Source: Candidatus Aminicenantes bacterium (lineage in GTDB: Bacteria; Acidobacteriota; Aminicenantia; Aminicenantales; JAFGBC01). Taken from it: 64,000 nt of DNA. The notes under the pieces were generated by a model. It was not told the origin of the DNA and did not search any database. It worked only from the letters and a program-made list of their open reading frames with translations. Below are positions 243 through 8,110 of this stretch, piece by piece. The first letter of the stretch is position 1. Each line of letters starts with the position of its first letter. The stretch spans positions 2,592,001-2,656,000 of the forward strand of contig OY969696.1 of the NCBI GenBank assembly GCA_963702005.1, written 5' to 3'. The position numbers and the translations under genes are program-made.

Positions 243-683
243 ATGGGACGGGCTATCGAGCGGATCAAGGTCCTGGCGGATCTCGGGGACGTCGACCGGG
301 TCCGGAACGTCCTCAGAAACGCGCTCGAGCGCTGGGGCGTCGACGAAGAGGACGGCTTCAAGATCGAGCTGTCCCTTTATGAAGTCTGCATCAATATCAT
401 TCTCTACGCCTATCCGGGAGGCCGCGGCGAGATCGATGTCCGCCTCTGGATGGAGGGAAACCGGTTCCATCTCGAGGTCCGGGACACCGGCCTGCCCTTC
501 GACCCCCGGAGCCTCGCCCCGCCGGACATCCGCGAGAATATCAGGACGGGGAAGAAGGGCGGCTTGGGCGTCTACCTGGTCCGAACCCTGATGGACGGTT
601 TTTCCTACCGGCGCGAGAAGGAAACCAACGTCCTGACGGTTACCAAAACCCTGAGGCCGAGGAAACCCTCCTCTACGAGCTAA
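243..683 (+). CDS. Anti-sigma factor Ser/Thr kinase (RsbW/SpoIIAB, HATPase_c)
   Basis: GHKL boxes ExxxNxxxYAY, DTGLPFDP and GGLGVYLVRTLMD. Confidence 0.9.
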   Translation: MGRAIERIKVLADLGDVDRVRNVLRNALERWGVDEEDGFKIELSLYEVCINIILYAYPGGRGEIDVRLWMEGNRFHLEVRDTGLPFDPRSLAPPDIRENIRTGKKGGLGVYLVRTLMDGFSYRREKETNVLTVTKTLRPRKPSSTS

Positions 684-713: not shown

Positions 714-1547
714 TCAGTAAAGAACGTTGGCCTCCCCGTTTTCCTTGATCAGGCGGTCGACCTCGGCCAGGATGAGGTCGCGGCGGATGAGCACGGCGTT
801 GATCTCCTCGTCGCTGAGATACTCCCCGACGGCCGCCCGGATCGTGTCGAAGGTCAGGCCCTTGAGCTTATCGACGAAGGCCCGGGGGAGCTCCTTCATG
901 AGCTTGGGGCCTTCGGGATGCTTGGCCGTATAGATAAGCTCCTTGGTAAATTTTTTTGAAGTGCGGAAGGAACGCGAGTGATCGATGAGGATCATCCGCC
1001 AGTCCGGCTGGGTGATCAGGATCTGGTTCATGTGGCGGTCCTCGTTCGCGATCAGGTTGTCGAAAGCCCGCTGGAGGTAAGTGCTCCGGTTCCAGGCAAA
1101 GACGTGGATGGGCGGCGTCTTGATCTTCTTTTCTTCTTTTTGTTTCAGGGACAGGCAATCCTCGATCCAGAGCTGGCAGGAGCCGCGGTTTTCGTGGAAG
1201 CGCCTCTCGACCGTGGGCGGGACGCGGCCGAGATCGAGAAGCTTGTCCATGAGATAGGCCGCGATCTCGAATTGCCATCCTTCGATATAGCCGGACATCC
1301 GGCCCTGGGCGTTCTTCCAAAGAGCGCGGTGGACGATGTCGCCCTTTTTAAGGGTCAACTCCCACGGGCTGGTTACAGACTCAGGACCGACCATCTGTTT
1401 ACTGGCGATGATGTCGGCCGTCCTCAGGAACTCCTCCCATTGAGGCCGTTCCGCGATCTCCTCGGGCAGGAACTGGGCCCGGAGAGCTGGGGCGACGGTT
1501 AAAAAGGCCAGCGCGATCAGGGAAAGATAAACCGGCTTTTTGTTCAT
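714..1547 (-). CDS. Exported PI3K/PI4K/Fam20-fold kinase-like protein, paralogue 1
   Basis: Signal peptide MNKKPVYLSLIALAFLTVAPALRA. Motifs ALWK, EIAAY, VPPTVER, GSCQLW, FDNLIANEDRH and LIDHSRSF. GGAGGG RBS before the ATG at 1547. Confidence 0.75.
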   Translation of the reverse strand: MNKKPVYLSLIALAFLTVAPALRAQFLPEEIAERPQWEEFLRTADIIASKQMVGPESVTSPWELTLKKGDIVHRALWKNAQGRMSGYIEGWQFEIAAYLMDKLLDLGRVPPTVERRFHENRGSCQLWIEDCLSLKQKEEKKIKTPPIHVFAWNRSTYLQRAFDNLIANEDRHMNQILITQPDWRMILIDHSRSFRTSKKFTKELIYTAKHPEGPKLMKELPRAFVDKLKGLTFDTIRAAVGEYLSDEEINAVLIRRDLILAEVDRLIKENGEANVLY

Positions 1548-1596
1548 ACTCCCTCCCTCCATCCGACGTCCATTCTATCTCCGCGGCGCCGCGGAT

Positions 1597-2418
1597 TCAA
1601 TACAGAACCTTATCCTCTCCATTGGCCCGGATCATGTCCTCGATCTCTTTGAGGACGAGGTCCTTGCGGGCCAGGACGGCCTGGATTTCCTCGTCGCTCA
1701 AGTACGGCCCCACCGCCGTCCGGACGCTTTCGAAGGTCAGGGATTTGATGCGATCCACGAAGGCGCGGGGAAGGCGGCGGAAAAGGAGGGGGCGAGGCTT
1801 AGCGCCCTGGCCGTAGAGGAGCCGATTGCTGAATTCGGGGCCTTTTCGGAAAGAGCGTGAGTGATCGATGAGAATGCTCCGCCAATCCTTGGTATAGAGC
1901 ATGTTTTGCTGGGTCCGGTCCTCGTTGGCGATGAGGCTGTCGAAGGCCCTGATCAGATATTTGGCTTTCTCGGTCCGGTCCAGGAACTCGTCGGGGATTC
2001 TTATATTATTTTCCGCGACCTTGAGAAGGCTCGTCTCGACCGTCGCCCAGAATTGAAGGGATCCTTTTTTGCCCAGGTACTCCCGTTCGACGGTCGGCGG
2101 GATCATGTCGAGTCCGAGGAGTTTATCCATCCGATAGGCCGCGATTTCGTACTGCCAGCCCTCCCAGAAGCCGAGCTGCCAGCCGCTGGGGTTCTTCCAA
2201 GCGGCCCGCTCCTCCCGGCCGTCCTTGCGGAGCGTGAGCCGAATGGGTTTGGTGACGCCCTCGGGGATATCCTCCGCCTTGACGATTTCGGCCGAGGCCA
2301 GGAAATCCTCGATGGCTTCCCTTTGAGCGATCTCCTCCGGCCTGAACTGGGCGAATGCGGCCGAGGCCAATGCCACTAGGACAATCGTAGCGGGACGTCG
2401 GATGGTTCGGAGTTTCAT
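1597..2418 (-). CDS. Exported PI3K/PI4K/Fam20-fold kinase-like protein, paralogue 2
   Basis: Signal peptide MKLRTIRRPATIVLVALASAAFA. Motifs GVT, AAWK, EIAAY, IPPTVER, GSLQFW, FDSLIANEDRTQQN and LIDHSRSF. Clearly collinear with paralogue 1. Confidence 0.75.
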   Translation of the reverse strand: MKLRTIRRPATIVLVALASAAFAQFRPEEIAQREAIEDFLASAEIVKAEDIPEGVTKPIRLTLRKDGREERAAWKNPSGWQLGFWEGWQYEIAAYRMDKLLGLDMIPPTVEREYLGKKGSLQFWATVETSLLKVAENNIRIPDEFLDRTEKAKYLIRAFDSLIANEDRTQQNMLYTKDWRSILIDHSRSFRKGPEFSNRLLYGQGAKPRPLLFRRLPRAFVDRIKSLTFESVRTAVGPYLSDEEIQAVLARKDLVLKEIEDMIRANGEDKVLY

Positions 2419-2528
2419 GTCCTTCTTCCCTGGGAGAATTCGTCTGGAATCTATATAGCATATCCGAACCCGCAAATCCACCAAGTTGTGTTGACAGGGC
2501 TTTTTCGGTTGGTGTAGAGTGGTTCCTC

Positions 2529-3395
2529 GTGTTTGCCAAAAAAGCGTTCGCCGCCGTCCTCTCGCTGGTTCCCATCCTCCTGCCGGCGGCCTGCGCGCCG
2601 CGCCTCGCGCCCACGATTCTCTTTCCTTATCAATGGCCGGGGAAGCCGGGCTTCGACGGAAACATCGACCGGATTGGGATCGAGGGGCCTTCCGGTATCG
2701 TATTCCATCCCGGCCGCAACACTCTCTTCATCGTCGGGGACAAAGGTCTCATCGCCGAGATCGCTAAGGACGGCACGCCTGTCTTTAGCCAGCCCCTGCC
2801 CGGTGACCTGGAGGGGATCACGGTCGATCCGGCGACCGGGCTCTTGTATATCGTCGTCGAGGGGGACGACGTCATCCTCGAATTCGACCCGGAGCGGCGG
2901 ACCGTCCTGCGCCGTTTTCCGATCAACCGGGCCTTTGGGGGCTGTCCCGAATTTTTGGAGAAGCAGCGGGACAGGTACGACGACGGCATCGAGTCGATCG
3001 CCTGGATCGCGAACCCGTCCCATCCCGAAGGAGGAACCTTCTATATCGGGAATCAATGGGACCCGCCGGTCATCATCGAAGTCGAGGTTCCTCTCCGGTC
3101 GCGGGCGGCCGGGCCGGCCGAGGCCCGCATCGTCCGCGTCCTTCCCACTAAGATCGCCGACCCGGCCGACATGTACTACGACGCCCGGACGCGCCGCTTG
3201 AACGTCGTCTGCGACGCCGACAACATCCTTCTCGAGATCACGCTCTCCGGCCGAATCGTCGCTCAGTATGCGTTTCCCGGAGACAGTCAAGAAGGACTGG
3301 CCAGGGACGATGAAGGATACCTCTACCTGGCCCAGGATAACGGGGGGATCTTCAAGCTTAAGGATCTCAGGACCCCGGCGGCCCGCCGGAAGTGA
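2529..3395 (+). CDS. SdiA-regulated/YjiK-like beta-propeller lipoprotein
   Basis: Lipobox-like LPAAC. Repeated PSGI, DLEGIT, GIESIA and QEGLA propeller motifs. Confidence 0.7.
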   Translation: MFAKKAFAAVLSLVPILLPAACAPRLAPTILFPYQWPGKPGFDGNIDRIGIEGPSGIVFHPGRNTLFIVGDKGLIAEIAKDGTPVFSQPLPGDLEGITVDPATGLLYIVVEGDDVILEFDPERRTVLRRFPINRAFGGCPEFLEKQRDRYDDGIESIAWIANPSHPEGGTFYIGNQWDPPVIIEVEVPLRSRAAGPAEARIVRVLPTKIADPADMYYDARTRRLNVVCDADNILLEITLSGRIVAQYAFPGDSQEGLARDDEGYLYLAQDNGGIFKLKDLRTPAARRK

Positions 3396-4743
3396 GTTTT
3401 CTATGCTCGCGGGCGATCAGGATGCCCAGGGCGATCCAGACGGCAACGACGGCCAAGTTGAACTTGGCGAAACCCTCGATCTTGAAGGCGAAGACGCTCG
3501 TCCCTAAAAGGACGGTCAAGGCGGACAGGACGTCCCCGGACCGGTGAAAGAACGTGTCGATGGCCGCCTTGGCCTTGTATTTGGCCTCCCGTGACGTGAT
3601 CAGGAATAGGGCGTGACGCGTCGTGTTCATCAGGGAGTAGTCGGTGGCGTTCTCGACGGCCTTGGTCCATTTCACGGCCAGCAACGTTGCACCCAAGCTT
3701 ACCGCCGCGTAGCCGCCGAAGGCCAGGACGGGGAGGAAGAATAGGGCGCCTCGGACGCCGACCGCTCTGAAGATCCGGGAGACCAGGAAGAGCTGTATGA
3801 CGACGGCGAGCAGGTTGAAGACCGTGAAGAAATCCGCATAGAGCTGACCCAGGTAATCGACCGTGCTCAAGCCGCCCATCGTCCCCGCCGCCGCCGCCGC
3901 CTGGGCGGCTCGGCTGAAGACCCGGTCCAGAATGTATTGGCCATTCGTGTTGACGAGGTTCAAGACCATTATGAATAAGGCGATCAGGAGAAGGTAGCGG
4001 CTCGAGAAGAGAAGACGGAAACCTCCGCCCTTGGCGAGGGGTTTTTCTCCGAGGGCTTGGGCCTCCCGTGACTTCAGGCGGATCCGGTCGACCTCCCTGC
4101 GGTGGACGACCAGGGTCAGGAGGATACAGATGCTGAGCACGGCGCCGGCCACGATCATCATCGCGTAGCAGCCGAGCGAGGCGACCAAAACCTTGACGAT
4201 CGCGCTTCCGGTCAGGGCCCCAAAGGTCGCACCGAAGGCGATGAGAGGAAAGAGCCTTCGGCCTTCGGCTTCCGTGTAGATGTCGTTGGCGAACCCCCAG
4301 AATTGGGCGGGAAGCATGACGCTGAAAACGCCCGCCCAGACGAAGAAGGCGATCCCCATCGTGCCCAGCGGCGTCCCGAAGAGATAGAGGCCGTAGAAGA
4401 GGACGAGGTTGCTTATAAAGAAGACGAGGACGGTGGCGATGAGTTTTTGGCGGGGGACACGGGAGGCGAGATGGCTGAAGGCCTTGACGGCGAAGACGAG
4501 GACCACGGCCGTCGCGGCGGACAGGTAGCTCTTATATTCGGCGCCCTTCCCGGCGTTGATCAGGGCGTCCCGGACGGGTTTGACGATGTAGTAGCAGGTC
4601 ATAAGGAGGTAGACGTTCAGGACAAGGAGGACGGCCGTGGAGGCCTCGCCGGGATGGACTTCCGAGAACAGCCGCAGGAACCGATAGAGGGGCGGCTCGG
4701 GCTTCGGGAGCGCGGCCGACCTCTCGTTCTTTTCCAAGGTCAA
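3367..4743 (-). CDS. Nucleotide transporter, TLC/Npt ATP:ADP antiporter family
   Basis: About 12 hydrophobic segments. Motifs YYIVKPVRDAL, QFWGFANDIY..EGRRLFPLI, DYSL and KYKAKAAIDTFFHRSGD. The TTG start overlaps the upstream stop. Confidence 0.85.
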   Translation of the reverse strand: MTLEKNERSAALPKPEPPLYRFLRLFSEVHPGEASTAVLLVLNVYLLMTCYYIVKPVRDALINAGKGAEYKSYLSAATAVVLVFAVKAFSHLASRVPRQKLIATVLVFFISNLVLFYGLYLFGTPLGTMGIAFFVWAGVFSVMLPAQFWGFANDIYTEAEGRRLFPLIAFGATFGALTGSAIVKVLVASLGCYAMMIVAGAVLSICILLTLVVHRREVDRIRLKSREAQALGEKPLAKGGGFRLLFSSRYLLLIALFIMVLNLVNTNGQYILDRVFSRAAQAAAAAGTMGGLSTVDYLGQLYADFFTVFNLLAVVIQLFLVSRIFRAVGVRGALFFLPVLAFGGYAAVSLGATLLAVKWTKAVENATDYSLMNTTRHALFLITSREAKYKAKAAIDTFFHRSGDVLSALTVLLGTSVFAFKIEGFAKFNLAVVAVWIALGILIAREHRKLTSGGPPGS

Positions 4744-5564
4744 TTCCTTCCGGCCGGGGGACCGAACAGGACGGCCGCTTCGCCCTTGTCCTTGATGAGA
4801 CCTTCCAGCGCGTCCAGGATGCGTCCCGTCCTCTTCGCCATCGCCCGGAGCTCGGCGTCGTTGAGAAATGCCCCGAGGGTCGCTTGAAGCTTTTTGAGAT
4901 CAAGATGCCGCAGCGTCTCGAACAAGGCCCGGGAGCAGCGCGTGACCTCGCAGCCGGGGATCAGGGCGGGCTCGGGCGAAAACGCCTCCGAGAAATCGAC
5001 TCGGCAGATCTTCCAATTGTCCTTGTGGACGAAGGTGTCCTCCAGGTTTCCGCACTCGTTGAAGACCAGGTTTTCGAAGATTCTGATCTCGGCCAGGGCG
5101 TCCCGGAACGCCGCCGGGTCCGGAGGAGAGATCCCGCGTCTTTTCAGGTCCCTGAATTTCACGCAGTTCTCGAGGAAAAGCTGGAGCGATCCCGGCACTT
5201 CGTCGATCGTCCGCTCGACGATGGGCGGGATGATCCGGAGGCCGACGAGCTTGGACAGCCCATAGGCCGCGAGCTCGTAGTGGTAGCTGTCGGGAAGGAG
5301 GGCCGGCCGCTTCCGGTCGACGTACTTAAAAATGGCCCGGCGCTCGACGACCCCGTCGCTCAAGGTGATGATCCAGGGGGCGGTCCGGCCTCCGGCCCCG
5401 CTTTTGTCGATGGAAACGACGCGGGCCGATCCCAGGAAAGCTTCCAGGGCGGCCGGATCGGGTTCGTCCTGCGCTCTCATGCCGGCCAAGCTTAGAGCCG
5501 GAACGCACGCCCAAACGACACCGGCCAGGAGCATCCCGACTCTCAAAAACGCGCTATTATTCAT
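4740..5564 (-). CDS. Exported kinase-like paralogue 3, probable pseudokinase
   Basis: Signal peptide. Motifs GRT, AIFK, ELAAY, IPPIVER and GSLQLF. The catalytic loop NEDR(H) is replaced by NECGNLED and IDH by VDF. Confidence 0.7.
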   Translation of the reverse strand: MNNSAFLRVGMLLAGVVWACVPALSLAGMRAQDEPDPAALEAFLGSARVVSIDKSGAGGRTAPWIITLSDGVVERRAIFKYVDRKRPALLPDSYHYELAAYGLSKLVGLRIIPPIVERTIDEVPGSLQLFLENCVKFRDLKRRGISPPDPAAFRDALAEIRIFENLVFNECGNLEDTFVHKDNWKICRVDFSEAFSPEPALIPGCEVTRCSRALFETLRHLDLKKLQATLGAFLNDAELRAMAKRTGRILDALEGLIKDKGEAAVLFGPPAGRN

Positions 5565-6657
5565 CCCCCTCCCCCCAGACCGAGAATTGTCCTTTGTCTA
5601 TGATGAGGGCGCTCAGGCGGCCTCCGTAAAAATGTGTGATTCCGGTGTCGATAATCCAGATCCGCTTCTGGAACCGGCTCATATATTCCATGGCGACCGG
5701 GCTTCCGATTTGAGGGGAATGCGCGATGACCATATAATGGGCCTTCAGGTTGGCGAAGATTTGGTCGACTTCGGGGGCGAACTCGTTCTCGTCCCGTTGA
5801 GCCAGGTCCCGGTACCAGAGGGGGCCGAACCGGTCATAGATGACCTGTGGATGGAACAGACGCATGACCCGGGGACTCTTGACGGGTACGCTCAGAAAAG
5901 AAAGCTCTTCGCGGAGGACATCGTTGATCCGAGCCAGGTCCCAGGTCGAATATTTAGGGCTGACACCGCCGTGGACGAAGATGACGTCGTTGATTTTCTC
6001 TATGCAGTTTTTCTTCAAGAACCAAGGGCCGTAGTCCTCGAGAAAACCGCTGAAGTAGGCGGACTGGGCCTCCTTATCGGTCTTCATCGTTTTTGTCCAA
6101 TAGCCCGTCAGCATGGGGGAGTATTCCGGGTTGGCCTCTTTCGTCGGGCTGCCGTCGCCGATTATGCCTTTGAGGACATCCCGCTCACGGCTCTCTCGGA
6201 AGTCCCGGGGAAGGAACGACAGGAACTGCTCCAAAGTCACGAGGTCCGGATAGTCGAAAACGATGCCGATAAGGTTCAGGATCTCGTGGTTGCCGAGCAG
6301 GACATGGATTTTTCCCCCCGCTAAAGCGGCTTCGACCTCGAGTCTCATCAACAGGTCCAGGATTTTCCGGGCGTCGGGCCCTCGGTCCATAATGTCTCCG
6401 GTTTGGATCAGGTGGATCTGTCCCCCCGCCCAGTGGAGGCCTTCATCGACGAGCCCGGTCCCCTTCAGGATAGCGACGAAGTTCCCGTAGTCGCCGTGGA
6501 GGTCGCCGACGGCAACGATTTTTTCGACGCCGGTCCAAACGCAGGGTCTATCGGAAGCGCGAAGGGGGGAGAAGGCGACGGCCAGGACGAAGACAAGGAC
6601 GATGGGCAGAAAGGGTAGGCCGAGCCATCGTCTTCGGGTTTTGGGTGGTCTCGGCAT
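5557..6657 (-). CDS. Exported calcineurin-like metallophosphoesterase (PPP/Shewanella-like phosphatase)
   Basis: Motifs GDLHGD, GDIMDRG, GNHE, FVHGG, GPLWYR, AHS and IDTG. Basic/hydrophobic N-terminus ending LRA. GGAG RBS before the ATG at 6657. Confidence 0.88.
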   Translation of the reverse strand: MPRPPKTRRRWLGLPFLPIVLVFVLAVAFSPLRASDRPCVWTGVEKIVAVGDLHGDYGNFVAILKGTGLVDEGLHWAGGQIHLIQTGDIMDRGPDARKILDLLMRLEVEAALAGGKIHVLLGNHEILNLIGIVFDYPDLVTLEQFLSFLPRDFRESRERDVLKGIIGDGSPTKEANPEYSPMLTGYWTKTMKTDKEAQSAYFSGFLEDYGPWFLKKNCIEKINDVIFVHGGVSPKYSTWDLARINDVLREELSFLSVPVKSPRVMRLFHPQVIYDRFGPLWYRDLAQRDENEFAPEVDQIFANLKAHYMVIAHSPQIGSPVAMEYMSRFQKRIWIIDTGITHFYGGRLSALIIDKGQFSVWGEGDE

Positions 6658-6763: not shown

Positions 6764-8110
6764 ATGAAAAGAAGCTCCCGACCCGGGGGCCGTTGCTCCC
6801 GACTCGGGTGCGGACTGGCCGCGGCCGTCTTCTTGTTCCCCTCCTGCGGCGCCGGGAGCGTCCCCGGGAAGTCCCCGGCTCCCTCGAGCCCCGCCGTCCG
6901 GAACGGAATCGAGGTCTTTCTCGCCAAGCTCCCGGACTTCGTGAAGGGAAAGCGGCTTGGCCTCATTACCAACCCGACGGGCGTTGCGAGCGACCTTCGC
7001 TCCACGGTAAAGCTTCTCAAGGCCGTTCCGGGAATCAAGCTGGTCGCCCTCTACGGGCCCGAACACGGCGTCCGGGGAAACGCCCAGGCGGGCGAGAGCG
7101 TTCCGTTCTATTTCGACGAAAAGTTCGGAGTCCCCGTTTTCAGCCTTTACGGCCAATCCACGAAGCCCGCCCCCGGGATGCTCAAGAACATCGACGAATA
7201 CATGCGATCGTTCGACACCAAGGACACGGGCAAGCTCCCGGAAGCGTCCATGGTCGAGGATGTCGATATGCTCATCTACGACATCCAGGACGTCGGAACC
7301 CGGATCTATACCTATGTCGCGACCATGGCCTACGCCATGCAGGCCTGCGCCGAAAGCGGCATCGATTTCGTCGTCCTGGACCGGCCCAACCCGATCAACG
7401 GGCTGGACATGGAAGGCCCCATCCTCGAGTATCCCGCCTACAGCTCTTTCGTCGGGCTCTATCCGATACCGCTCCGCCACGGGATGACGATCGGCGAGCT
7501 GGCCCGCCTCTTCAACGACCGCTTCCTGGCCAAGAAAGCCCGATTGACCGTGGTGCCGGCCGAAGGCTGGAAGCGGGAGATGTGGTACGACGATACGGGT
7601 TTGCCCTGGGTCATTCCTTCGCCCAACATGCCCACCCTTGACACCGCCGCGGTCTATCCCGGCCAGGGCTTATTCGAAGGGACGAACGTCTCGGAGGGGC
7701 GGGGGACGACCAGGCCCTTTGAGCTCTTCGGAGCCCCTTGGGTTGACGGATTTGAGCTGGCCCGGGCCCTCAACGGCCTCGGCCTTCCCGGCGTTAAGTT
7801 CCGGGAAGCTTGGTTCACGCCGACCTTTTCCAAATTTAAGGGTCAATCCTGCGGAGGATGCCAGATCCATATCATTGATCGTACAGCCTATCGTCCCTTG
7901 GCGACGACGCTCCACATCATCCGGGTCTTGAGCGAGATGTATCCCGACCGGTTCGAATTCCACAAGGATTATTTCGACAAGGTCATGGGCACGTCCCGAG
8001 TCCGCGAGGCCCTTGAAAAGGGGACTTCCGTTCCGGCCATCTTGGAGAGCTTCAAGGCCGGCCTGGCCGAGTTCGGGAAGCTCCGTCGGCCTTACCTGCT
8101 CTATGAATAG
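6764..8110 (+). CDS. namZ: Exo-beta-N-acetylmuramidase NamZ (DUF1343) family
   Basis: Motifs GLITNPTG, YGPEHG, DIQDVGTRIYTY, LDRPNP, PSPNMP and EGTNVSEGRGTT. Confidence 0.88.
   Translation: MKRSSRPGGRCSRLGCGLAAAVFLFPSCGAGSVPGKSPAPSSPAVRNGIEVFLAKLPDFVKGKRLGLITNPTGVASDLRSTVKLLKAVPGIKLVALYGPEHGVRGNAQAGESVPFYFDEKFGVPVFSLYGQSTKPAPGMLKNIDEYMRSFDTKDTGKLPEASMVEDVDMLIYDIQDVGTRIYTYVATMAYAMQACAESGIDFVVLDRPNPINGLDMEGPILEYPAYSSFVGLYPIPLRHGMTIGELARLFNDRFLAKKARLTVVPAEGWKREMWYDDTGLPWVIPSPNMPTLDTAAVYPGQGLFEGTNVSEGRGTTRPFELFGAPWVDGFELARALNGLGLPGVKFREAWFTPTFSKFKGQSCGGCQIHIIDRTAYRPLATTLHIIRVLSEMYPDRFEFHKDYFDKVMGTSRVREALEKGTSVPAILESFKAGLAEFGKLRRPYLLYE

Follow-up and report, generated by a model that had tools for sequence, protein, structure and literature searches.

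In animals, Fam20C is a protein kinase, Fam20B is a xylose kinase and Fam20A is a pseudokinase. In the lumen of the ER and Golgi, an SLC35-family ATP/ADP exchanger supplies ATP to lumenal kinases and chaperones. The abstract of PMC5865150 states that Fam20A activates Fam20C, and the paper contains 0 matches for "bacteria" or "prokaryot"; in PMC7948968, the lone match for bacterial terms is a reference title, with no mention of bacterial Fam20 relatives, and extracts from PMC9758233 call the FAM20 cluster eukaryote- or Metazoa-specific. In bacteria, the spore-coat protein CotH is described as an atypical kinase related to Fam20C (extracts from PMC12189002), and LpxT adds phosphate to lipid A at the periplasmic face (abstract of PMC2229476). 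LpxT differs from the proteins described here, as it has no kinase fold and its donor is undecaprenyl pyrophosphate, not ATP.

According to passages of PMC5381601, PMC6995639 and PMC2606016, all characterised NTT carriers transport nucleotides or NAD+, and the ATP/ADP antiporters among them co-transport Pi with ADP at 1:1. These sources also indicate that NTT specificity is not readable from sequence (PMC6995639), that import is the sole direction demonstrated experimentally for bacterial NTTs, and that the NTTs of free-living bacteria have no known function (PMC5381601). We found no published description of a module such as the one presented below, which lies in a 64,000-nucleotide stretch (the window) of contig OY969696.1 from a Candidatus Aminicenantes bacterium.

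Organisation of the gene cluster

The ORFs were located in the reading frames of the window at the coordinates given here. On the minus strand, a metallophosphatase of 366 aa (5557-6657, ATG at 6657, stop at 5557), K3 of 274 aa (4740-5564, ATG at 5564) and a short TLC/NTT-family carrier of 458 aa and about 12 helices (3367-4743, TTG at 4743) form an overlapping unit. The phosphatase stop and the K3 start overlap by 8 nt, and the K3 stop and the carrier start by 4 nt, which confirms the start-to-stop overlap reported for these three genes in the initial annotation. The two further paralogues that it placed on the same strand, K2 (1597-2418, ATG at 2418) and K1 (714-1547, ATG at 1547), are present, each with a purine-rich Shine-Dalgarno-like stretch upstream, but it overlooked a beta-propeller gene (2529-3395) between the carrier gene and K2. 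As this gene intervenes on the plus strand, K1 and K2 lie outside the overlapping unit. The conserved cluster is also larger than was described, with TLC-HEAT carriers and RsbU/RsbW-like regulators belonging to it.

The propeller is signal-bearing and SdiA-regulated/phytase-like (PF06977, E 1.3e-9; PF13449, E 2.5e-8). Of 19 related cluster loci, 7 have it at the equivalent position, and a member of its family adjoins the phosphatase-kinase fusion gene in 5 of the 80 distant loci (e.g. L027:6956-7816). It is an accessory member and a possible partner or substrate-handling protein. An RsbW-like anti-sigma-type Ser kinase (HATPase_c_2, PF13581, E 1e-29) is encoded at 243-683 on the plus strand and in 17 of the 19 related loci, and is a cytoplasmic regulator travelling with the cluster. 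Just upstream, beyond the window (L007:9996-14219), are genes for an 843-aa TLC/MFS+HEAT carrier and an FHA-GAF-SpoIIE phosphatase. The genome encodes ATP synthase and Omp85 homologues, the latter being compatible with the presence of an outer membrane and thereby of a periplasm.

The predicted exported enzymes

In all four enzymes, the N-terminus is rich in K/R and is followed by a hydrophobic core and then by an A-x-A-like end (LRA|Q, AFA|Q, MRA|Q and LRA|S across the four), so the export signals of the initial annotation are recovered, as judged by a crude hand-made rule. A signal-like N-terminus is also conserved in relatives by this rule, which was satisfied by 12 of the 13 fusion proteins and 72 of the 85 stand-alone representatives; among control ORFs, 354 of 1172 satisfied it.

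The phosphatase (Pfam Metallophos, E 1e-10) belongs to the PPP family and is of the Shewanella type, called Shelph. Both domain halves match the Shewanella cold-active protein-tyrosine phosphatase (PDB 1v73/2z72, E 4.6e-29), all of whose metal-binding motifs are shared; the window sequence contains GDLHG, GDIMDRG, GNHE and VHGG. In contrast to the Shewanella enzyme, the window-type phosphatase has a Fam20-like domain as its partner, either encoded separately or in a fusion.

K1 and K2, which are 51% identical, gave only sub-threshold HipA_2/PI3_PI4/Fam20C matches in Pfam. The profile of their family (78 members), however, matched FAM20A (E 1.5e-13), a Fam20B orthologue (1.8e-10), Fam20C (about 1e-8) and PI4KII (1.6e-6) in the PDB. 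With the AF2 model of K1 (pLDDT 91.9, pTM 0.88), the top Foldseek matches were all Fam20 (best E 6e-10). Superposed on Fam20C/B/A, the model gave Z-scores (VIA) of 19.4-21.1 and an rmsd of 3.1-3.5 A over 230-240 residues, compared with 18.2-19.3 for PI4KII, about 16 for CtkA, about 12 for HipA and 11.5 for CotH, which is thus structurally much more distant. The kinase fold proposed in the initial annotation is therefore well founded: these proteins constitute a large, uncharacterised and unnamed bacterial family homologous to the Fam20 secretory-pathway kinases, which in modelled fold appears nearly as close to the type II PI 4-kinases. The two groups share a homologous kinase domain (19-22% identity), including the Fam20-type C-terminal helices, a location behind a signal peptide and outside the cytosol (predicted for the bacterial family), and the occurrence of active members beside a degenerate one. 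In contrast, the bacterial proteins are about 275 aa long and devoid of the animal insertions, and single sequences fall under the Pfam Fam20C cut-off. A PPP phosphatase is coupled or fused to their degenerate member, which is not the case for Fam20A, and their cluster also encodes a candidate nucleotide carrier.

The catalytic residues are largely kept in the family: in a set of 118 domain sequences, 108 have the loop Asp, 105 the loop Asn and 116 the DFG-like Asp. K1 exhibits the loop N-E-D-R-H-x-N and K2 the loop N-E-D-R-T-Q-Q-N. Both retain the catalytic residues in their orthologues, those of K2 keeping the D-R-T-Q-Q/E-N and I-D-H-S motifs, and both are predicted to be exported kinases.

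K3, which is 28% identical to K1 and has no Pfam match, retains the Lys, the helix-C Glu and the Asp of a V-D-F motif, but carries NECGNLED at the position of the family's N-x-D-R-x-x-x-N; D-R-x-x-x-N was found in 0 of 20 K3 orthologues. K3 is thus a predicted pseudokinase and probably not the writer that it was taken for within the unit. Its loop is remodelled yet conserved, with an Asp in place of the loop Asn in nearly all orthologues. This could indicate that the Fam20-like proteins perform another nucleotide-dependent chemistry outside the cytoplasm, such as AMPylation or glutamylation, fed by the carrier; such activities are known for atypical kinase folds, including the SidJ pseudokinase glutamylase cited in the reference list of PMC7948968. 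Nevertheless, K1 and K2 have the Lys, Glu, Asp, Asn and Asp that are canonical for the Fam20/PI4K type, and phosphate transfer best fits the pairing with a protein phosphatase, so we consider another chemistry quite improbable.

The carrier and its linkage across genomes

The carrier scores 53.7 bits against Pfam TLC (PF03219, cut-off 21), a model with matches in 0 of 14 control genomes, and 61.9 bits against the NTP/NDP-exchanger model TIGR00769, far under the cut-off of 387. The only PDB matches of its subfamily profile are two NTT proteins (E 1.5e-24 and 1e-15), and with its AF2 model (pLDDT 90.2) the top five Foldseek matches are the five NTT structures (TMq 0.60-0.74). Family, fold and the motifs F-W-x-F-A-N, Y-S-L and K-x-K-x-A-I-D are shared with Arabidopsis NTT1 and Chlamydia Npt1 (PDB 9j3j-9j3o), but the window carrier belongs to a distant subfamily of free-living bacteria and is linked to exported enzymes. 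The invariant basic residues of this subfamily (R58, R163, R323, K388 and R401) align with basic positions in true NTTs, while the NTT gamma-phosphate/Pi-binding Lys aligns ambiguously, with either Arg401 or Asp404. The carrier is thus a distant member of the TLC/NTT family and, by family membership, a candidate nucleotide carrier.

The conserved linkage anticipated in the initial annotation, fusions included, is strong and spans phyla. In a 151-genome sample of the window's class, TLC was found in 51 genomes, K3 in 50 and the phosphatase in 55, all three being confined to the same six families, save for a seventh family with five weaker phosphatase matches (E 1e-16 to 1e-22). The phosphatase adjoins K3 in 48 of 49 genomes; the short TLC adjoins K3 in 32 of the 49, lies 2.4 kb away in one more and was not found in four. 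TLC-HEAT genes were still present in all five examined clusters without an adjacent short TLC.

Nine of ten long family representatives combine an N-terminal Metallophos domain with a C-terminal kinase domain, and 548 of 600 pattern matches in genome contigs encode relatives of this kind. The fusions are predicted to be single exported proteins and occur in Gammaproteobacteria, other Acidobacteriota and Myxococcota (named members: Chromatiales, Thermoanaerobaculia and Myxococcota). Of 80 loci from other phyla, 34 have a TLC-family ORF beside the fusion gene (21 of the 46 having at least 5 kb on both sides), as a convergent short TLC in Gammaproteobacteria and a co-directional TLC-HEAT in Acidobacteriota, with two flanking TLCs in Aliikangiella; no TLC was within reach in 46 of the 80. 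When PF03219 was searched genome-wide in five fusion genomes without a TLC neighbour, there was no match in G154 (5.7-Mb chromosome) and only marginal ones in two others.

The recurrence across genera and phyla places this arrangement far beyond chance. Inherited synteny without functional coupling could still be suspected, since related genomes are not independent and most counts come from one order and one gammaproteobacterial radiation. However, the association recurs with differing gene orders, strands and TLC subtypes across phyla, stop and start codons overlap, domains are fused, and the three genes share one presence/absence pattern over the families of the window's own order. We therefore regard mere synteny as very improbable indeed.

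TLC-like carriers are much commoner than the kinases (47 against 3 of 250 Gammaproteobacteria, with one genome not scored and the 47 including the unpublished G194), and most gammaproteobacterial ones occur without Fam20-like kinases. Among 80 metagenome loci with related short TLCs, the phosphatase was found in two and the kinase domain in one. The exported partners beside related carriers can be quite different: 13 of 20 gammaproteobacterial loci have an aldo/keto reductase with a twin-arginine signal, and 36 of 80 metagenome loci have an Omp85-type barrel, either fused or close by. In addition, 17 loci have a fusion gene without a TLC neighbour, adjoining a CotH-like protein and a DUF4956 membrane protein. 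These observations are compatible with a real module whose carrier moves a solute other than ATP/ADP, the donor of the kinases arriving by another route. The solute could be a small-molecule substrate or product of the kinase or phosphatase (e.g. a phosphorylated sugar, an inositol phosphate or Pi) or another nucleotide cofactor. The distant position of the carrier within a family whose specificity cannot be read from sequence (PMC6995639), the accompanying phytase-like propeller and the near tie in fold scores between Fam20 and PI4KII, the latter comprising lipid/inositol kinases, point the same way. In contrast, such a solute does not explain where catalytically intact exported kinases obtain their donor, all characterised members of the family carry nucleotides or NAD+ according to the sources above, and the match of invariant basic residues to NTT basic positions is expected for a polyphosphate-bearing solute. 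We consider this alternative rather unlikely.

The barrels recall nutrient uptake routes, which are often fused or linked in this way, and import is the only direction shown for bacterial NTTs (PMC5381601). The carrier could accordingly scavenge external nucleotides, with the phosphatase and kinase-fold proteins binding or processing extracellular nucleotides or organophosphates; that K3 keeps nucleotide-binding but not catalytic residues would fit. Scavenging nevertheless seems improbable, as mere binding requires none of the full catalytic set that is under selection in K1, K2 and most fused domains, a nucleotide-destroying phosphatase would counteract import, and the genome makes its own ATP.

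A candidate extracytoplasmic phosphorylation module

A conserved and catalytically intact kinase that lies outside the cytoplasm must have a phosphoryl donor available in that compartment. Our best explanation, to which we give about an even chance, is that the cluster is a conserved extracytoplasmic phosphorylation module, whose carrier gives ATP to periplasmic kinases and retrieves ADP. K1 and K2 would be the active periplasmic kinases, and their substrate class may be protein, glycan or lipid. K3, having lost the loop, may bind nucleotide or substrate as a partner of the phosphatase, to which it is translationally coupled here and fused in relatives. The carrier would run in reverse relative to parasites and plastids, with cytoplasmic ATP out and ADP in, and Pi would return along with ADP if it behaves like characterised NTT antiporters. 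Kinase, phosphatase and carrier would thus form a mass-balanced loop. The TLC-HEAT paralogues and the neighbouring FHA-GAF-PP2C/RsbW-like pair probably regulate supply from the cytoplasmic side. The proposal resembles ATP supply in the ER/Golgi, where a carrier also brings ATP to a non-cytosolic compartment containing signal-bearing kinases, but the carrier families are unrelated and a bacterial periplasm replaces the eukaryotic endomembrane system.

Several points weigh against ATP supply. The gene directly coupled to the carrier is the degenerate K3, the carrier scores far below the exchanger cut-off, TLC is not always present, and TLC-like carriers are common without these kinases. ATP in a porin-bounded periplasm could also leak out, the signal calls come from a crude rule, and the phosphate-binding Lys has an ambiguous alignment. 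The linkage of the exported enzymes with the carrier in several phyla suggests that these bacteria export ATP from the cytoplasm for the phosphorylation of envelope targets.

Gene organization and predicted export signals of the module

The genome holding the window is a single contig of 4.31 Mb, 94% complete, and the nearest named protein relatives are from Candidatus Aminicenantes. The genes of the metallophosphatase (366 aa, 5557-6657, Pfam Metallophos), of the kinase paralogue K3 (274 aa, 4740-5564) and of a polytopic membrane carrier (458 aa, TTG start, 3367-4743) follow one another on the minus strand with start-to-stop overlaps of 8 nt and 4 nt, respectively, which confirms the overlapping unit of the initial annotation. 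The two paralogues that it placed after this unit, K2 (1597-2418) and the Fam20-like K1 (714-1547), are on the same strand, but a plus-strand SdiA-regulated/phytase-like propeller gene (2529-3395), which it did not mention, lies between the carrier and K2.

The N-terminal export signals ascribed to all four enzymes, i.e. the three kinase-like proteins and the phosphatase, are recovered as signal-like N-termini by a crude hydrophobicity and charge rule. By the same rule, a signal-like N-terminus is found in 12 of 13 proteins in which phosphatase and kinase domain are fused and in 72 of 85 stand-alone representatives, compared with 354 of 1172 control ORFs. Genes of the Omp85 family, as would be expected of a cell with an outer membrane and thereby a periplasm, are present in the genome, and it encodes an ATP synthase.

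Several other genes flank the module. A RsbW-like kinase gene is found at 243-683 (plus strand; HATPase_c_2, E 1e-29), and just upstream of the window are genes for an 843-aa TLC/MFS carrier with HEAT repeats (TLC-HEAT; L007:9996-12527) and for an FHA-GAF-SpoIIE (PP2C) phosphatase (L007:12543-14219; SpoIIE, E 2e-52, with FHA and GAF). These candidate partner-switching genes (RsbU/RsbW type) and TLC-HEAT travel with the module in related genomes; the C-terminal part of TLC-HEAT showed no STAS domain. Also upstream of the window, a phage tail collar domain (PF07484, E ~1e-19) is found in all of five tandem genes of ~208 aa on one strand (L007:2510-6805). A gene for a NamZ exo-beta-N-acetylmuramidase (6764-8110, plus strand, PF07075 and PF20732) and the phosphatase gene are divergent, with 106 bp between them. 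In some related loci this position is kept: NamZ occupies it in L088, L091, L105 and L081, and L088 and L105 also have a glutamine synthetase-like gene there.

Kinase-like proteins, phosphatase and carrier

K1, K2 and K3 are the sole members of their family in the genome, K2 and K3 being 51% and 28% identical to K1, respectively. As single sequences they give only sub-threshold Pfam matches, to HipA_2, PI3_PI4_kinase and Fam20C. Against Fam20C (PF06702, cut-off 26.8 bits), K1 scores 13.8 bits and K2 13.1 bits, K3 gives no match, and the tandem-domain relative P0140 reaches 29.4 bits. A profile of 78 family members searched against the PDB retrieves FAM20A (E 1.5e-13), a Fam20B orthologue (1.8e-10), Fam20C (~1e-8) and C. 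elegans Fam20 (1e-6), then PI4KII (1.6e-6). The AF2 model of K1 (pLDDT 91.9, pTM 0.88) has Fam20 proteins as its best Foldseek match (E 6e-10, TMq 0.65). In VIA-align, it matches Fam20 with Z-scores of 19.4-21.1 (rmsd 3.1-3.5 Å over 230-240 residues, 19-22% identity), in a near tie with PI4KII (18.2-19.3). Next in Z-score come CtkA, a kinase secreted by H. pylori (~16), and then HipA (~12) and CotH (11.5). The family is homologous to Fam20 at the profile level and has a common fold with it, so the kinase fold expected by the initial annotation holds. At E <= 0.001 the family, which carries no name, has at least 1930 representative clusters, and 1020 of these reach E <= 1e-10.

With regard to the catalytic residues, the Fam20 set was taken as the ATP-binding Lys, the helix-C Glu, the loop Asp (D-R-H-type), the metal-binding Asn/Glu and the DFG-like Asp. 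This set is complete in K1 (K78, E94, D170, N174, and D189) and in K2. The family consensus, L-I-x-N-x-D-R-N-x-G-N and L-I-D-H-S/T-R-A-F, is kept by K1 (D-R-H) and K2 (D-R-T-Q-Q-N) in every orthologue seen, and the catalytic loop is retained in most fused kinase domains. The D-R-x-x-x-N signature is missing from all 20 K3 orthologues, including two fused to the phosphatase; the column of the catalytic Asp holds Asp in two and Glu in one, and the Lys, the Glu and the Asp of V-D-F are retained. The loss of this signature leads us to predict that K3 is a pseudokinase. A complex prediction for K1 and K3, intended to test for a pairing like that of Fam20A with Fam20C, scored 0.00, which is evidence neither way.

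The phosphatase matches the cold-active protein-tyrosine phosphatases of Shewanella (1v73/2z72) with an E-value of 4.6e-29. Its translation contains GDLHG, GDIMDRG and GNHE, the full set of metal-binding motifs, which we take to be the GDxHG, GDxxDRG and GNHE of PPP phosphatases of the Shewanella-like branch. By motifs and homology, it belongs to this branch, presumably the one named Shelph-type. Outside the class of the window, the phosphatase and a kinase domain form one polypeptide, as in nine of ten long representatives; named members are from Chromatiales, Thermoanaerobaculia and Myxococcota. Fusion relatives are encoded by 548 of 600 pattern matches among species genomes, and the 80 fusion loci that we kept include Gammaproteobacteria, several classes of Acidobacteriota, Myxococcota, Planctomycetota and Gemmatimonadota. 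One apparent three-way fusion, a stop-to-stop frame in L081, proved to be an ordinary gene cluster whose reading frames overlap, and another ORF cluster (cluster 6) was discarded as an Arg-rich wrong-frame artefact.

The carrier scores 53.7 bits against PF03219 (TLC; gathering cut-off 21) and 61.9 against the NTP/NDP-exchanger model TIGR00769, far under its cut-off of 387.2. When searched against the whole PDB, a profile built from 31 proteins of its subfamily retrieves the two solved NTTs alone, C. pneumoniae Npt1 (1.5e-24) and AtNTT1 (1e-15). The five best Foldseek matches of its AF2 model (pLDDT 90.2) are NTT structures (E 1.6e-11 to 1.9e-7), other MFS proteins appearing from rank 6. The sequence matches place the carrier in the TLC/NTT family, and its model shows a 12-helix MFS-like fold nearer to NTTs than to other MFS proteins. 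According to three papers, the characterised NTTs all carry nucleotides or NAD+, and the ATP/ADP antiporters move ADP together with Pi, 1:1 (PMC5381601, PMC6995639, PMC2606016). The lysine that binds the gamma-phosphate or Pi is K527 in AtNTT1 and K446 in PamNTT1, and a K446E mutant of PamNTT1 is described as having lost ATP import and retained ATP export against ADP (PMC2606016). An invariant R401-x-G403-D404 of the carrier subfamily falls in the G-K-S-G-G region of NTTs. Two alignments disagree at the NTT lysine, one pairing it with the arginine and the other with the aspartate, and we infer the place of K527. If the aspartate is the counterpart of the lysine, the carrier would resemble the K446E mutant, which is a lead and not evidence.

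Conservation of the linkage and other partners of the carriers

In an even draw of 151 genomes from the class, 51 have the carrier, 50 have K3 and 55 have the phosphatase, and all three are common to the same six families. The phosphatase query also gives five weaker matches in a seventh family (E 1e-16 to 1e-22). In a recount that excluded G139, a genome with weak matches only, the phosphatase adjoins K3 in 48 of the 49 genomes having a K3 orthologue. In the same 49 genomes, the short TLC is adjacent to K3 in 32, 2.4 kb away in one, on another contig in 12 and not found in four. A single genome has only the carrier. Twenty regions were hand-picked from the match tables to span genera and exceptions, and are not a random sample; 19 of them are cluster loci. 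They reveal a larger conserved cluster, which begins with the RsbW-like kinase, K1 and K2, continues (in some loci after the propeller) with the short TLC, K3 and the phosphatase, and ends with one or two TLC-HEAT and the FHA-GAF-SpoIIE phosphatase. TLC-HEAT is present in 18 of the 19, the RsbW-like gene in 17 and the SpoIIE protein in 16, and the five clusters without a short TLC all keep TLC-HEAT. Together with the fusions in other phyla, these adjacencies show that the linkage is conserved.

Beyond the class, a TLC-family ORF adjoins the fusion gene in 34 of the 80 loci (21 of 46 where at least 5 kb is available on both sides). In Gammaproteobacteria a short TLC is convergent with the fusion gene, and in Acidobacteriota TLC-HEAT is co-directional with it; in one Aliikangiella, the fusion gene is flanked by two TLCs. 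Six gammaproteobacterial fusion loci have an additional stand-alone Fam20-like gene. PF03219 was found in none of 14 control genomes. No TLC was seen at the other 46 of the 80 fusion loci; in five genomes behind such loci, PF03219 is present elsewhere in four, two of these marginally, and gives no match in one. Seen from the carrier, the TLC-subfamily profile (E <= 1e-20) matches 47 of 250 evenly drawn Gammaproteobacteria and the kinase profile three; one of the 47 genomes is unpublished and one of the 250 was unscored. Among 80 metagenome loci with related short TLCs, two have the phosphatase and one a kinase domain. These counts indicate that the carrier family has other partners. The carrier-kinase link is strong from the kinase side but weak from the carrier side.

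A second type of fusion locus (17 of 80, a subset of L025-L056; e.g. L027:6250-9864) encodes an exported protein resembling CotH (its Pfam match is weak, E 0.0025), a four-helix membrane protein with DUF4956 and an unnamed protein of ~340 aa. The SdiA-regulated/phytase-like propeller occurs in five of these 17 loci and a TLC in one, so that the second type and the TLC are almost mutually exclusive. A VTC-type polyphosphate polymerase, which we assume to be a possible neighbour of DUF4956, gave no Pfam match among the ORFs tested near DUF4956 in TLC-less loci. Proteins of ~970 aa that combine an adenylate/guanylate cyclase domain with TPR are encoded close to the fusion in 19 of the 80 loci (L013, L016, L018 and others within L008-L087); they recall the cyclic-nucleotide-binding domains fused to NTT-HEAT proteins (PMC5381601).

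In the closest longer relatives of the carrier (P0294-P0307, 14 clusters, 38-48% identity, E 1e-75 to 1e-104), one ORF of 810-920 aa comprises both a TLC carrier and a C-terminal Omp85-type outer-membrane barrel, with PF01103 precomputed in 11 of the 14. The two halves are separated by a signal-peptide-like segment (K/R-rich, hydrophobic, A-x-A|Q-E/D). A fusion of an inner-membrane carrier to an outer-membrane barrel is very unusual. The barrel is present in 36 of 80 related metagenome loci (L128-L207), in frame with the carrier in 15 and nearby in the others. It was not found in 20 Aminicenantes-type or 20 gammaproteobacterial TLC loci and gives one marginal match at the 80 fusion loci, which places it outside the present module. 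In 13 of the best 20 gammaproteobacterial TLC-like loci (L108-L127), the carrier is directly followed by an aldo/keto reductase with a twin-arginine-type signal (e.g. L117:8558-9502 and L114:2923-3858); all seven reductases submitted to Pfam match PF00248 (E 1e-22 to 2e-33). As judged from the sequence, this is a second case in which a TLC-like carrier is paired with a putatively exported enzyme that depends on a nucleotide cofactor.

A possible nucleotide supply to the periplasm

The initial annotation proposed that the TLC carrier exports ATP for exported kinases acting as writers, opposed by the phosphatase as eraser. This interpretation is partly supported, by the kinase fold, the export signals and the conserved linkage. 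Kinases that are catalytically intact outside the cytoplasm need a phosphoryl donor there. The only transporter linked to the kinases comes from a family in which every characterised member carries nucleotides or NAD+, and it would be the donor route; an ATP/ADP exchanger would run outward in a cell with ATP synthesis of its own. The kinases would yield ADP and the phosphatase Pi, both substrates of the carrier's return leg. We give an even chance to the carrier supplying nucleotide outward to the intact kinases, with return of ADP and Pi. A more speculative, rather doubtful proposal is that the periplasm of some diderms is energised by ATP: an outward TLC/NTT carrier would feed Fam20-like kinases that are secreted, Pi would be freed by a PPP phosphatase, either fused or coupled, and the carrier would retrieve ADP and Pi, in a closed extracytoplasmic cycle regulating or powering envelope processes.

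The module bears a likeness to the eukaryotic secretory pathway, where Fam20 kinases are lumenal and ATP is imported into the lumen. Set against known systems, it combines kinase-like proteins of a new bacterial branch close to Fam20/PI4KII, a carrier of a distant NTT subfamily and a phosphatase of Shelph type. The FAM20 cluster is called eukaryote- or Metazoa-specific in one survey (PMC9758233). In a search of the main texts of open-access literature, including look-ups in PMC7948968, PMC5865150, PMC9758233 and PMC5381601, no prior description of the kinase family, the phosphatase fusion or the TLC link was found; these carriers may be listed in the supplement of PMC5381601, in its tree and tables. 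On this basis, we rate the module as a new kind of bacterial system, as predicted from sequence.

A periplasm without ATP is the premise of textbook accounts of the Gram-negative envelope and is stated in many papers. Envelope machines are therefore thought to draw their energy only from the inner membrane. To our knowledge, no bacterial family other than TLC/NTT is known to move ATP through membranes. A conserved module with catalytically intact, signal-bearing kinases beside a member of this family makes the premise directly testable. In the 2017 survey, NTTs of free-living bacteria and NTT-HEAT forms have no assigned function and the word 'export' does not occur (PMC5381601). An ATP-energised periplasm, if real, would imply that animal Fam20 kinases descend from, or share ancestry with, a bacterial exported family, that K3 is, like Fam20A, a pseudokinase acting as a partner, and that short TLCs of free-living bacteria generally supply nucleotide cofactors to extracytoplasmic enzymes. 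The pairing with the twin-arginine reductase and the Omp85 barrel hints at such a general role. If true, the present proposal would assign a role to the NTT/TLC carriers found in free-living bacteria, for which none was known in 2017 (PMC5381601). The Fam20 secretory kinases would gain a bacterial branch, and an exported fusion of kinase and phosphatase would be recognised as widespread, within a kinase family of at least 1930 representative clusters.
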